Origin: Escherichia phage kaaroe
DNA length: 64,000 nt
Sequence record: MN850574.1
Direction: 5' to 3' (one strand)
Of this stretch, positions 5,144 to 10,445 are shown piece by piece. A model generated the notes under the pieces. It made no database searches and was not told where the DNA came from. It saw only the letters and a program-made list of their open reading frames with translations. Each line of letters starts with the position of its first letter. Position 1 is the first letter of the stretch. A program made the position numbers and the translations under genes.

Positions 5144-5317
5144 ATGCCATTATACGATTATTCTTGTGAAGAACACGGTCAATTTCAGAAAATCCGCAAA
5201 ATTTCCGAGCGTGAAAAGGCAGAATGCCCTGAATGCGGTAAAGAATGCAAACAGGGATTGACTGCCCCGCGCGGGATTAATGGCGGGTACTATGATAAAA
5301 ATGTGCGCGTGTCATGA
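5144..5317 (+). CDS. FmdB-like zinc-ribbon protein
   Basis: MPLYDYSCEEHG...CPECG: CxxC...CxxC zinc ribbon; start overlaps dexA stop. Confidence 0.55.
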   Translation: MPLYDYSCEEHGQFQKIRKISEREKAECPECGKECKQGLTAPRGINGGYYDKNVRVS

Positions 5318-5416
5318 GTCATATACTTGACAATCACTCAATTTTTAATATGATTGTTGCAGCCGTCTTTGTGGCGGTTGCAGTAAGTTATGGTTATGTT
5401 ATGAAGAGGTTTAATA

Positions 5417-7240
5417 ATGAGTGAGTTTCGCATTTTATCTGATCGTGAACATGTCCTTAAGCGTGCAGGAATGTATATAGGATCAACAACTTACGAAGAA
5501 CATCAACGTTTCCTGTTCGGTAAATGGACAAAAATTTCATACGTTCCTGGACTGGTTAAAATCATTGATGAGATCATCGACAACTCTGTAGACGAGGCGA
5601 TCCGCACTAACTTTGAATTTGCCAATGTGATTAGCGTCGATATCCAAAACAATATTGTTACTGTAACAGACAATGGTCGCGGTATTCCTCAACATATGGT
5701 TACTACCCCAGAGGGTACGCAGATTCCGCAACCTGTCGCCGCATGGACACGAACAAAAGCAGGGTCTAACTTTGATGATACCAATCGATTAACGCAAGGG
5801 ATGAACGGTGTGGGGTCGTCGTTGTCAAATTTCTTTAGCGATTGGTTTACTGGTGTGACCTGTGACGGCGAAACAGAAATGACCGTTCAATGTACAAACG
5901 GTGCTGAAAATATCACATGGTCATCGAAACCATCAAAATTGAAGGGAACAAAGGTTACATTTTGCCCAGACTTCGACCACTTCGAAGGTTATATGATGGG
6001 CAACTCTGTTTTAGATATTGTTCATGATCGTCTGCAATCATTGAGCGTAATATTTCCTAAGATCACGTTTAAGTTTAATGGTAAACGTATTGTTAGTAAG
6101 TTCAAGGATTATGCTAAACTATACAATGATGATCCGTTTGTCATTGAAGATAAAAACTTTTCACTTGCCCTAGTTCCTGCGGTCGAGGGAGAAGGTTTTA
6201 AATCAGTATCCTTTGCTAATGGTCTGTTTACCAAAAACGGGGGAACACACGTTGATTATGTGACAGATGATCTTTGTGAAGAGATTGTAAAACGAATCAA
6301 GAAAGAATATAAGGTTGATGTTACTAAAGCTGCGGTTAAGTCTGGATTGACCTGTATTCTTATTGTTCGTGAATTGCCTAACCTTCGTTTTGATTCACAG
6401 ACAAAAGAACGATTGACTAATCCAACTGGTGATATCAAGCGTCATATTGATCTTGATTTTAAAAAGCTGGCTAAAGTCATTGCTAAGAAAGAAAACATTA
6501 TCATGCCTATTATTGCTGTAGTCCTGGCACGCAAAGAGGCAGCAGATAAAGCGGCAGCGACTAAGGCAGCAAAGGCAGCGAAACGGGCTAAGGTGGCAAA
6601 ACACGTTAAAGCTAACCTTATTGGAACTGACGCAGAAACTACCCTGTTTTTGACGGAAGGTGATTCCGCGATCAACTATCTGATCTCTGTACGTGATCAA
6701 GATTTACATGGAGGTTTCCCGTTGCGAGGCAAAACTCTTACAACGTGGGAACAACCGGAGGCAAAGATCGTTAAGAACGCCGAAATTTTTAACATCATGG
6801 CGATCACTGGCTTGCAATTTGGTGTTGATGCATTGGAAGTTATGCAATACAAAAATATTGCGATTATGACCGACGCTGATACTGACGGGATCGGGTCTAT
6901 TAAACCTAGTCTGATCTCTTTCTTTGCACGTTGGCCTGAATTGTTCGAAGATGGACGAATCCGGTTTATCAAAACACCTATTATCATTGCGGAACCAAAG
7001 AAAGGTGATGATGTTCGATGGTATTATGACCTAGAAGATTTCGAGAACGACCGAGATAATATCAAAGGTTACAACATTCGATATATCAAAGGTTTAGCAT
7101 CGCTCACAGAATCAGACTATCATCGCGTGATCAACGATCCTGTCATGGAGATCATCACGTTACCGGAAAACTATAAAGAGCTATTCGATTTGCTCTATAG
7201 TGAAGATGCAGATCAGCGCAAAATTTGGATGCAATCATAA
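5417..7240 (+). CDS. 39: DNA topoisomerase II large subunit, fused gp39+gp60 (GHKL ATPase + Toprim)
   Basis: N-terminal GyrB-like ATPase motifs (IDNSVDE, DNGRGIP, GLNGVG-like) and C-terminal Toprim (EGDSA, DADTDG) in one 607-aa ORF. Confidence 0.93.
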   Translation: MSEFRILSDREHVLKRAGMYIGSTTYEEHQRFLFGKWTKISYVPGLVKIIDEIIDNSVDEAIRTNFEFANVISVDIQNNIVTVTDNGRGIPQHMVTTPEGTQIPQPVAAWTRTKAGSNFDDTNRLTQGMNGVGSSLSNFFSDWFTGVTCDGETEMTVQCTNGAENITWSSKPSKLKGTKVTFCPDFDHFEGYMMGNSVLDIVHDRLQSLSVIFPKITFKFNGKRIVSKFKDYAKLYNDDPFVIEDKNFSLALVPAVEGEGFKSVSFANGLFTKNGGTHVDYVTDDLCEEIVKRIKKEYKVDVTKAAVKSGLTCILIVRELPNLRFDSQTKERLTNPTGDIKRHIDLDFKKLAKVIAKKENIIMPIIAVVLARKEAADKAAATKAAKAAKRAKVAKHVKANLIGTDAETTLFLTEGDSAINYLISVRDQDLHGGFPLRGKTLTTWEQPEAKIVKNAEIFNIMAITGLQFGVDALEVMQYKNIAIMTDADTDGIGSIKPSLISFFARWPELFEDGRIRFIKTPIIIAEPKKGDDVRWYYDLEDFENDRDNIKGYNIRYIKGLASLTESDYHRVINDPVMEIITLPENYKELFDLLYSEDADQRKIWMQS

Positions 7241-7244
7241 CACT

Positions 7245-7271
7245 TGACATACAAGGGAGATTCTCTATAAT
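7245..7271 (+). promoter_or_regulatory. sigma70-type early promoter
   Basis: TTGACA-15-TATAAT; inverted repeat GGGAGA/TCTCCC flanks the -10. Confidence 0.45.
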
Positions 7272-7305
7272 GGGAGTCTCCCTTTTCTTTTATGAGGATT
7301 TAACG

Positions 7306-7605
7306 ATGAGCAAAAAGAATAACATGATGATGAGTATGGCAAAGTTCATGGAAGCAGACCTGATCAAAAATACAGTACAGCATGAACGCCAGCGAGAAGC
7401 CGCAGTGATTGCAGAACAAGGTTTTCAGGTTATCCGCAATCCACCTAAAGATACGATTAAATCGAAATACAGAGAAGATCTGAAAGACCATGAAGTACGG
7501 GAACTGGTTAATGATCTGCGTGACATTGCCATCAAATATCATGGTTATCAGTGCTTACGAGAACTGATCGCAGAGCGAGTAATGGATGCATTGAAAAAAG
7601 ATTAA
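7306..7605 (+). CDS. hypothetical protein
   Basis: ATG 7306 with SD GAGGA; preceded by promoter. Confidence 0.55.
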   Translation: MSKKNNMMMSMAKFMEADLIKNTVQHERQREAAVIAEQGFQVIRNPPKDTIKSKYREDLKDHEVRELVNDLRDIAIKYHGYQCLRELIAERVMDALKKD

Positions 7606-7612
7606 AAATCTG

Positions 7613-7641
7613 TTGACACTGGATCGGGGATATATCATAAT
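7613..7641 (+). promoter_or_regulatory. sigma70-type early promoter
   Basis: TTGACA-17-CATAAT with GGGGAT/ (A)TCCCC dyad around -10. Confidence 0.55.
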
Positions 7642-7671
7642 GTCCCCATCGAAAACAAAAGGTTGACTTAT

Positions 7672-7866
7672 ATGAAACCGTTTAAGAATGAAGAAACTCA
7701 AAAATTTTGTGAAAAAATTGCAGAAATCTACTTGACAGGGAATAAGGAAAAAGCTAATATTATGTTCAAAGAGTCAGTTTCCATGATGAAAGTAGCACGC
7801 TGGGAACTGATCGCAATGCAAGACCAAATTCGTTATCTAGTAACAAAGGAGAATCAAAATGCGTAA
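7672..7866 (+). CDS. hypothetical protein
   Basis: ATG 7672 downstream of promoter. Confidence 0.5.
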   Translation: MKPFKNEETQKFCEKIAEIYLTGNKEKANIMFKESVSMMKVARWELIAMQDQIRYLVTKENQNA

Positions 7867-8053
7867 CCATTACATCGAATTGGCAAGCCGTAAAGTTTCA
7901 GACCTGAAAGGCGTAATTGCTTACTATGAAGAAGTCCTGAAAAACGAAATTGCCGAGTGGGAACGTAAAGAATACAGCAAGTGCTTAGAGAAAAGCCGCG
8001 CTGAACTGGTTGACGCAGAAGCCCATCTGCAATGGGTAATTGAAAATGTATAA
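7859..8053 (+). CDS. hypothetical protein
   Basis: SD AAGGAGA before ATG 7859; overlaps previous stop. Confidence 0.5.
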   Translation: MRNHYIELASRKVSDLKGVIAYYEEVLKNEIAEWERKEYSKCLEKSRAELVDAEAHLQWVIENV

Positions 8054-8064
8054 GGAGTAGAAAA

Positions 8065-8322
8065 ATGAGTCGAAGTTTTGATTTTATGATCGCCAAGTGT
8101 CATAGAGAAAAGAAATCGATGGACCTATTTATGAAATGTCTGAGATATGAATATGCGCACCTTCGTAAACACAAAATTGACCCGCAAGTTTCCTACGAAA
8201 ACATCAAGAAATATGCGAAAGAAGTGATTGACAACGATTGCACCGTGACATATAATGCGTTTATTGATTTATGGGCGTGGGATGTAATCTACGCAGAGAT
8301 GGACAAAGAAGATTTTAATTAA
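8065..8322 (+). CDS. hypothetical protein
   Basis: SD AAGGAG before ATG 8065. Confidence 0.5.
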   Translation: MSRSFDFMIAKCHREKKSMDLFMKCLRYEYAHLRKHKIDPQVSYENIKKYAKEVIDNDCTVTYNAFIDLWAWDVIYAEMDKEDFN

Positions 8323-8336
8323 GTGAGGATTATATT

Positions 8337-10445
8337 ATGAAAATGCATATTGATAATGAAGAAGTATTTGGCAGTGACTTGAGCGGTGCGGTTGATTTTT
8401 CACTGAAAGCAAGTAGCAAGGCTTTTATGGTGCTTTCTAAGAACACTTATCAATATTGTGAACGTGCTTGCGTCCGTGAGTATTCGTGCAATGCTACCGA
8501 CACTCACAAAGAAGCCGGAACCTTAGATCGTCCGTTTGATATTCATTTACCGACTGCAATCGAACCGTATTTTTCTGTGCGTGATTATGGTACTGGTATT
8601 CCGTCTAAGAAAGAATTAGAACAACTGTTTACGGTTTACTTTGAATCAACAAAAGACCAGACTAATGATTATATCGGATCTTTTGGTTTAGGTGCGAAAT
8701 CTGCTTATAGCTATACCGACACCTTTACAATCGTAAACTATTACAATGGTCGCGCTTATGGCTTTACGGCATTTGTGCAAAACTCTATGCCGAAAATGGT
8801 GCAGATTTTCGACGAACCGACCTATGAAGACAACGGTCTGAAAATCACTATTCCGGTGAAAGAAAAAGACATTCAGACATGGCATCGAGAAGCGCAATTT
8901 GTACTGCGTCATTTTGGGGAACACAAACCTAATATCAATGCAATCGAAATTAATTATTTCCCTAGCTTTGATAATTATTATGTGTGTAATGGGCGTGATA
9001 ACGATTCCTATGTAGTATATGCAATCATGGGTAAGATCCAGTATCCGATCCCGTATGAATATGTTCGCGGAACATGGTTAGAAGCTGTAAACCGCCAGCA
9101 CCAGACCATTTACATTAATTTTGAGTTGGGTGATCTGGACCTTATGCCATCGCGTGAAGAAGTTCACTTGTCAATTGAGACTAAAGCGAACATCGAAAAA
9201 CGCATTGCAGAAATCAATGAAATGATGTTGGAAAAGGTTAAAGAAAAGATCGCCAACATTAAAACAGAGCGTAAACTTGCGCAATTTATGAGCGAGTATT
9301 CATCGACTCAACGCAATATTATTAGCAAGATGGGTAAGATCGGACAATGGGACGATCCGGTAGCAATCTATAATAAGTTTGTTAATGCGGGTAAAGATTC
9401 GCCTAATGACGTAGAAGGTCAGGTGTATACTCTGTATCGTACTCGTCACACAATAAGTAAATTGCGCCCTGCTTTCGTTAGCAGTCAATACAACATTACG
9501 CATTTTGTATGGATGCATAAAGAAGATATTACGTGTCTTATTGATGATACCGATAAACCGAAACTGCGTGCACTGACTCTTAACGGCATGGTCCAGGAAT
9601 ACGGCATCAATAAAAAGGTACTGGTGTTCCGTCAGAAAAACGAAAAACATATGGAGACTTTCGAGTACATCAAACAGTATTATGATGATTCTGAAATGAC
9701 CGTGATTAAAGTGTCTGAGGCCGATGATCTGCGTGCTAAAGCAGTTAAACCGGAGAAGACCGAGCGTACACAACGTGAAGCGACTCCTAAGCTGCCTAAC
9801 GTGTATATCATGGAAAAGATTGGTGACAGTTGGCATAAAACCAGCCATCACATGAAAGCGGCAGAGATTCGCGAGTTATCAGGCTTGCACATGTTCCGCG
9901 TAGGTGATGCATTCGAAAGCCGTAGTCGTAAATCGATCCATAGTGAAAATACATTACACACGGCGCTTGACTACTTCGGGGTAACAAAGTATATTATTAC
10001 TCGAAACGAGACACAAAAATATCTCGTTGACGAACAATTGGAATGTGCGCTAGAATTTGTTCGCGGTAAGCTGGCTGGTCTGGCTAAGAAGGTTAAGACC
10101 AATCATCTGGGGTATGGCGAATATCTGGGTGTGATCACTATGTTGTTTCATGACGATGAACTAGAACGCTGTGTTCCAGAATTTATTGACAGACTGTACG
10201 GTCGTCATTATAATAAAGAGGTTTCCAAGTTACTCCTTCGTACTCGTTGGATTATGGACGCAGAAACTAAAAAGATTTGTGATGAAAAATTCACGGTAGC
10301 AAACGAACGAATTAAAGCAGTTTGTGCGAAGTTTAAAGAGAATAGCCCGTTACTGTATGATATTGTAGATAACTGGTATCGTATTCTGCATAATGACAAA
10401 CGCGCACAAGACTTTATGAAACTGGTTAAGAATGTTAAATTTTAA
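8337..10445 (+). CDS. rIIA: rIIA membrane-associated protein (GHKL ATPase-like)
   Basis: 702 aa (T4 rIIA ~725); N-terminal HATPase-like motifs (DYGTGIP, GSFGLGAKSAY); followed by rIIB. Confidence 0.85.
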   Translation: MKMHIDNEEVFGSDLSGAVDFSLKASSKAFMVLSKNTYQYCERACVREYSCNATDTHKEAGTLDRPFDIHLPTAIEPYFSVRDYGTGIPSKKELEQLFTVYFESTKDQTNDYIGSFGLGAKSAYSYTDTFTIVNYYNGRAYGFTAFVQNSMPKMVQIFDEPTYEDNGLKITIPVKEKDIQTWHREAQFVLRHFGEHKPNINAIEINYFPSFDNYYVCNGRDNDSYVVYAIMGKIQYPIPYEYVRGTWLEAVNRQHQTIYINFELGDLDLMPSREEVHLSIETKANIEKRIAEINEMMLEKVKEKIANIKTERKLAQFMSEYSSTQRNIISKMGKIGQWDDPVAIYNKFVNAGKDSPNDVEGQVYTLYRTRHTISKLRPAFVSSQYNITHFVWMHKEDITCLIDDTDKPKLRALTLNGMVQEYGINKKVLVFRQKNEKHMETFEYIKQYYDDSEMTVIKVSEADDLRAKAVKPEKTERTQREATPKLPNVYIMEKIGDSWHKTSHHMKAAEIRELSGLHMFRVGDAFESRSRKSIHSENTLHTALDYFGVTKYIITRNETQKYLVDEQLECALEFVRGKLAGLAKKVKTNHLGYGEYLGVITMLFHDDELERCVPEFIDRLYGRHYNKEVSKLLLRTRWIMDAETKKICDEKFTVANERIKAVCAKFKENSPLLYDIVDNWYRILHNDKRAQDFMKLVKNVKF

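Follow-up and report, generated by a model that had tools for sequence, protein, structure and literature searches.

A standard uninterrupted gene 39 for the topoisomerase II large subunit in a Krischvirus genome, with homing-endonuclease inserts beside the gene in sibling phages

We report here that gene 39 of Escherichia phage kaaroe (MN850574.1), analysed within a window of 64,000 nucleotides to which all coordinates refer unless another locus is named, very probably (at about 96%) encodes a standard uninterrupted gp39, the GyrB/ParE homologue of a T4-like type IIA topoisomerase, and was never invaded by MobA; it would need no recoding, because a gene that never received the MobA cassette never received its bypass gap. 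The window is a Krischvirus (RB49-like) genome, and the one-piece gene 39 of this genus is real, was correctly interpreted in an earlier note on this DNA, and is both ordinary and already known; it is the split form of T4 that is the unusual one. In T4 and a minority of its relatives, a MobA homing-endonuclease cassette divides the Toprim domain between gp39 and gp60 and introduces the 50-nt bypass gap. By itself, the intact gene is of little importance, and it confirms that the bypass is a trait of the mobile cassette rather than of the topoisomerase gene. Its modest added value comes from the context, as the ends of gene 39 serve as insertion points for homing endonucleases in sibling phages.

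Results

A single frame carries the complete subunit

Gene 39 has an ATG start, a TAA stop and no internal in-frame stop in the ORF list (Table 1), and the ATPase and Toprim domains lie together in this one frame of 607 codons, as the earlier note had claimed. Pfam places HATPase_c (PF02518, the GHKL ATPase) at aa 45-186 (E=5.8e-9), the transducer DNA_gyraseB (PF00204) at aa 259-383 (E=5.4e-17), Toprim (PF01751) at aa 409-518 (22.1 bits) and TOPRIM_C (PF16898) at aa 519-606 (29.7 bits). The Toprim score is marginally below the curated cut-off of 23.1 bits; this is no real objection, because the solved T6 and T4 chains align over the domain region. String searches recovered the ATPase motifs (the N-box IIDNSVDE at aa 53-60, DNGRGIP at 85-91 and GMNGVGSS at 128-135), the QTK loop (SQTKERL, aa 327-333), the Toprim glutamate motif LTEGDSA (EGDSA; aa 412-418, nt 6650-6670) and the acidic DxDxD cluster MTDADTDG (aa 484-491, nt 6866-6889). 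The features that mark the ATPase/Toprim subunit of a type IIA topoisomerase, namely the GHKL motifs, a QTK transducer, the Toprim glutamate with DxD, and an encoded partner, were all found.

Table 1. Coordinates of gene 39, its parts and neighbouring features in the window
Feature	Coordinates	Strand	Basis
Gene 39 (fused '39+60'), DNA topoisomerase II large (GyrB/ParE-like) subunit, 607 aa	5417..7240	+	ORF list, Pfam, BLASTP, megablast, solved-chain alignment
GHKL ATPase domain	5549..5974	+	Pfam and motif string search
Transducer (DNA_gyraseB) domain with QTK loop	6191..6565	+	Pfam and string search
gp39-like part, aa 2-474, homologous to residues 4-475 of T4 gp39: ATPase, transducer, first Toprim half	5420..6838	+	BLASTP, string search
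gp60-like part, aa 476-605, homologous to residues 31-158 of T4 gp60: second Toprim half and Toprim C-terminal domain	6842..7231	+	Pfam, BLASTP, string search
Uninvaded equivalent of the MobA-cassette insertion zone	6809..6892	+	Coordinates inferred by alignment with RB33
Promoter-like site, 11/12 to consensus, upstream of gene 39	5327..5354	+	Consensus match only
Perfect 12/12 sigma-70 consensus promoter (TTGACA, 16 nt, TATAAT)	7244-7271	+	Consensus match
Terminator-like 13-bp hairpin with a T-run behind it	7253..7284	+	Fold; same site annotated as terminator in G5211
Partner subunit gp52 (GyrA/ParC-like DNA cleavage subunit), 453 aa	12681..14042	+	PF00521, E=6.3e-69; GTG start as listed

Among solved structures, the best match is the T6 gp39 chain 8ylu_C, which aligns end to end (query 2-606 to chain 4-604, E=4e-233), so that a solved homologue at 57% identity spans the entire window protein; the artificially fused T4 gp39-gp60 chain 8yo3_C aligns in two stretches. 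The fused gp39 of the T2/T6 type (T6, PDB 8ylu; RB33; RB14) is likewise one polypeptide of ~605 aa, is collinear with the window protein, and belongs to a two-subunit enzyme with gp52 (PMC11461880). The window protein differs from this type by its ~57% amino acid identity and by indels of 1-2 residues at two places, aa 470-476 (the Toprim linker) and aa 528-533.

By homology, the N-terminal GHKL domain of gp39 would bind and hydrolyse ATP and operate an ATP-driven gate, while the contiguous Toprim domain would provide the metal site for metal-dependent support of DNA cleavage. The cleavage core itself would be gp52, which with gp39 should form a heterotetramer of the two-subunit type, as in T6. 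ATP-dependent strand passage by the window gp39 may be expected from its 57% identity to the characterised T6 and T4 enzymes (PMC11461880), and it is from this kinship that we infer both the enzymatic activity and the subunit stoichiometry.

The protein is collinear with T4 gp39 followed by gp60

The T4 proteins were rebuilt from the T4 record (gp39, 516 aa; gp60, 160 aa, joined over the annotated 50-nt gap) and compared with the window protein by BLASTP. Window aa 2-474 match T4 gp39 residues 4-475 with 57% identity, and aa 476-605 match gp60 residues 31-158 with 55% identity (E=6e-51). The two blocks abut, a single residue separating aa 474 from aa 476. This alignment had been proposed in the earlier note, with an unrelated C-terminus named as the outcome that would speak against the claim; instead, the subunit came out collinear and unsplit. 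The note was right that the C-terminus is homologous to gp60 and erred on the length, since the homology extends over ~130 residues and not 90.

T4 gp39 and gp60 together are homologous to the window protein over all catalytic parts, with the glutamate motif in the gp39-like part and the DxDxD cluster in the gp60-like part. However, the last 41 residues of T4 gp39 (476-516) and residues 1-30 of gp60 have no counterpart in the window protein, either by BLASTP or in the comparison with RB33; these tails are the extensions that have been ascribed to the inserted element (10.1101/2022.08.31.505936). Whereas T4 has the split, the 41-aa C-terminal extension of gp39, the 30-aa N-terminal extension of gp60, mobA and 60.1, the window gene has neither a divided Toprim domain nor tails, neither a MobA gene nor its remnant, and no bypass gap. 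It is a single ORF collinear with gp39 plus gp60 and free of cassette-derived extensions, which is the arrangement of the unsplit T2/T6 type.

The junction is continuous at the nucleotide level

Between the blastn blocks that flank the bypass position, T4 has 62 nt and the window only 12 nt (gene nt 1465-1476), so that the window is shorter by exactly 50 nt. T4 reads GGA TAG at the take-off site and then has the 50-nt gap; the window has GGG (6887-6889) in place of GGA, and next to it not a stop but the sense codon ATC (6890-6892), with no gap, the bypass position falling between G491 and I492. When the window gene was compared with the T4 39-60 region by blastn, only the topoisomerase coding parts matched, with no MobA gene or remnant. 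Inspection of the junction, also suggested beforehand, found coding continuity and no take-off stop, and the claim that this gene has neither a gene 60 split nor a bypass element stands: its frame is continuous and 50 nt shorter here than that of T4.

What had been said of T4, that its coding sequence is split by an insertion with a 50-nt bypass, holds equally. The fused gene of RB33 (Tequatrovirus) has 97.3% identity to T4 as far as gene nt 1418, and 98.5% from nt 1483 onwards. Between these break points only one block of 46 nt aligns, at 76% identity, and 1117 nt in T4 replace 64 nt of RB33; the T4 record places a homing-endonuclease remnant in this insert. The picture matches the published anatomy of the MobA element, which comprises a sharp 5' break, a region of homology that has been replaced, and the bypass cassette (10.1101/2022.08.31.505936). 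The window gene is collinear with RB33 throughout the insertion zone, and by alignment the 5' boundary of the cassette in other clades would correspond to aa 466-473 of the window protein and the 3' boundary to a point just past D490/G491.

The gene and its neighbourhood in Krischvirus

Megablast with the gene returned 58 phage records, all of them Krischvirus and 90-99% identical (RB49, Phi1, JSE, GEC-3S, Sf20 and others). RB49 gene 39 (NP_891577.1), annotated as topoisomerase II large subunit, has 98.8% nucleotide identity to the window gene, the two being separated by point substitutions only: 22 nt and 3 aa differences over 607 aa (with RB49 as reference: K179N, G195D and E474D). The sister phage Phi1 has this gene under the label '60+39: gp60+39 topoisomerase II large subunit'. 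RB49 and Phi1 also have the same neighbours as the window, namely the 39.2 zinc-ribbon ORF, the 36-aa ORF, four small ORFs and rIIA, and the order dda, dexA, 39.2 (zinc ribbon), 36-aa ORF, 39, small ORFs, rIIA is that of the T4 early region read from the opposite strand.

The consensus promoter downstream begins 4 nt past the gene 39 stop and is followed by the four small ORFs, with rIIA at 8337, in agreement with the earlier note, which had a promoter and small ORFs directly behind the gene. The loop of the terminator-like hairpin is the -10 hexamer TATAAT of this same promoter, and a fold of -23.1 kcal/mol (z = -3.95) was obtained for the 60 nt from 7241 to 7300. On the other side, the 36-aa hydrophobic ORF (5314-5424), which corresponds to RB49p006.1, runs 8 nt into the start of gene 39 and contains both the upstream promoter-like site and a hairpin at 5354-5386; it has no Pfam match.

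The gene is present in all 58 Krischvirus records. Because 22 of the 58 records align with window positions 5300-8340 in two or three pieces, we considered whether gene 39 might be split in other members of the genus, and rejected this: the alignments are broken because extra DNA adjoins gene 39, and in the four records checked (W115, FL15, MIZ6 and G5211) all the extra segments lie outside the gene. At least one representative of each insertion class was inspected among these four, and the remainder of the 58 were classified by length and annotation.

The fused form is the norm

A homologue was found by tblastn in 2059 phage records, in 1995 of which one place covers at least 80% of the query. 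In a sample of 60 rows spaced evenly along this list, a two-piece match with an endonuclease gene in between was seen in four. The T4 cassette is present at a coverage of at least 80% in 41 phage records, with weaker matches in Salmonella, Acinetobacter and Shewanella phages; judged by organism name, no Krischvirus is among the 136 records that match it. The window protein and yeast Topo II align as a single stretch over the split position. This collinearity with yeast, the tblastn counts and the rarity of the cassette make the fused form both the norm and the ancestral state. The ancestral arrangement proposed in the earlier note is also supported by the clean RB33/T4 break points and by the endonuclease remnant in the T4 insert. 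Among T4-like phages and, to our knowledge, all cellular type IIA topoisomerases, the one-piece gene is the default.

Discussion

Two other explanations of this gene have to be weighed against an intact gp39 that MobA never invaded. The arrangement could have arisen by a 'hit and run', in which the cassette once split the gene here and was later excised precisely, restoring the single ORF. Re-fusion of this kind has been described in other clades, among them a clade of Aeromonas phages (10.1101/2022.08.31.505936), and the linker at aa 466-477 is the least conserved stretch of the window protein, with a length difference of 1-2 aa from RB33. However, the Aeromonas cases keep inserts homologous to the tails, of ~44 aa each (10.1101/2022.08.31.505936), whereas the T4 tails are unmatched in the window protein. 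Its length is 607 aa against 605 in RB33, and the arrangement is common to 58 of 58 Krischvirus records. With no tail remnant in the BLASTP comparison with T4 or in that with RB33, we rejected secondary re-fusion after cassette loss, whose probability, counting in a scarless excision that the sequence would not reveal, we put at a few parts in a hundred; the homology points instead to an empty site that would be primary rather than restored.

It could also be asked whether the protein is a true DNA gyrase B, acting in supercoiling, and not a subunit of a topoisomerase II that relaxes DNA as in T4. Sf20, kvi, E26 and other phages have it annotated as 'DNA gyrase, gyrB subunit', and the GyrB Pfam domains are indeed shared. 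Yet the similarity runs the other way, with E=4e-233 and 1e-223 to the T6 and T4 enzymes and ~1e-59 to eukaryotic Topo II, against a far weaker ~1e-28 to GyrB. Gyrase supercoiling requires the C-terminal DNA-wrapping domain of GyrA, and T4 topoisomerase II relaxes DNA and does not supercoil it. The partner gp52, in turn, has just 453 aa and a single DNA_topoisoIV domain, which is the cleavage core only. A gyrase is thus the least credible reading of all, and we give it practically no weight beside a gp39 of the T4 type.

The intact gp39 of the window fits well with what had been established before. Already in 2010, all other T4-related phages then sequenced were reviewed as having a single gene, with the gap nucleotides apparently in none of them (PMC3014915). 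Manning and Atkins later described carriers of the cassette in six clades, each with an empty-site relative 96-99% identical within the gene (10.1101/2022.08.31.505936). In a cryo-EM study from 2024, both the two-subunit T6 enzyme and the T4 topoisomerase II were solved, and the T4 insertion was found to affect activity little (PMC11461880).

That the bypass belongs to the mobile cassette and not to the topoisomerase gene was reportedly demonstrated by experiment by Bonocora et al. in 2011. The same has been established comparatively (10.1101/2022.08.31.505936). The suggestion in the earlier note that this phage would be a useful comparison point for the origin of the bypass is weak: its gene has only ~64% nucleotide identity to T4 gene 39, and the empty site can be read directly from phages as close to T4 as RB33 (97-98% identical), which makes the window gene a poor comparator. 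Empty-site genomes with 96-99% identity to cassette carriers have already served this purpose (10.1101/2022.08.31.505936).

Homing-endonuclease inserts beside gene 39 in sibling phages

The window itself carries neither of the two endonuclease inserts that adjoin gene 39 in its siblings. The upstream insert, present in 13 of the 58 records, is an ORF of 242 aa carrying an Endonuclease_7 domain (E=5.6e-16), located between the 36-aa ORF and gene 39. It substitutes for window positions 5406-5469, the window having the empty site, and in MIZ6 it lies at 307-1109 of locus L006. Past this insert, gene 39 begins with ~650-700 nt that share just 70-83% identity with the window (5470 to ~6100), before the identity rises to ~100%. 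To judge from this pattern, the diverged 5' stretch beside the Endonuclease_7 ORF looks like a co-conversion tract left by homing; the window has the uninvaded allele. A donor of the diverged MIZ6-type allele was not found in the phage collection, the nearest other sequences being ordinary Krischvirus alleles with ~78% identity. G37-3 (MK327941.1, vB_EcoM_G37-3) has the diverged 5' allele, 98.7% identical to that of MIZ6, and no match to the Endonuclease_7-type ORF; it is possible that the endonuclease was lost after homing, or that the allele was acquired by recombination.

Records with the upstream endonuclease start their gene 39 annotation at the internal Met19, giving 589 aa (MIZ6, L006 1057-2880; G5211, L004 1111-2880). 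This is probably a mis-annotation of the start codon, because the complete 607-aa frame begins 54 nt before Met19 (MSEFLLLDDRAHCLKRPSMYIG...) in both MIZ6 and G5211.

The downstream insert is a 187-aa ORF with HNH_3 and AP2 domains that starts 2 nt past the gene 39 stop (in W115, 2114-2702 of locus L005), located exactly between gene 39 and the TTGACA promoter. It substitutes for window positions 7213-7243, and beside it gene 39 ends in ~10 recoded codons, with EDSDMRKAWMAS instead of EDADQRKIWMQS. It was confirmed in W115, FL15 and G5211, and about seven more records were assigned to this class by length, for a total of ~10.

It is tempting to speculate that gene 39 of the window is the uninvaded allele at three homing sites, the internal MobA site, used in T4 and further clades, and one at each end, used in sibling Krischvirus phages, and that, if the endonucleases were active and uncharacterised, the genus would offer a natural series of such states; we hold this only as a doubtful proposal, with the odds some way against it. 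If true, the series could serve to study how cassettes in which an endonuclease is coupled to a recoded copy of its target are placed at an essential gene and perhaps enter it. Such an entry would be the step before the T4 bypass.

Two further observations concern other records. In OX001802.1 (vB_Eco_TB34, 89779-91601) the gene 39 match is 1823 nt long, not 1824, and is annotated as two topoisomerase CDSs, which looks like the effect of a 1-nt indel, possibly a sequencing error, and not a biological split. Homologues of the Endonuclease_7 ORF, 40-45% identical, are located at similar coordinates in VR7 and VR26, whose records likewise begin at the rIIA end.
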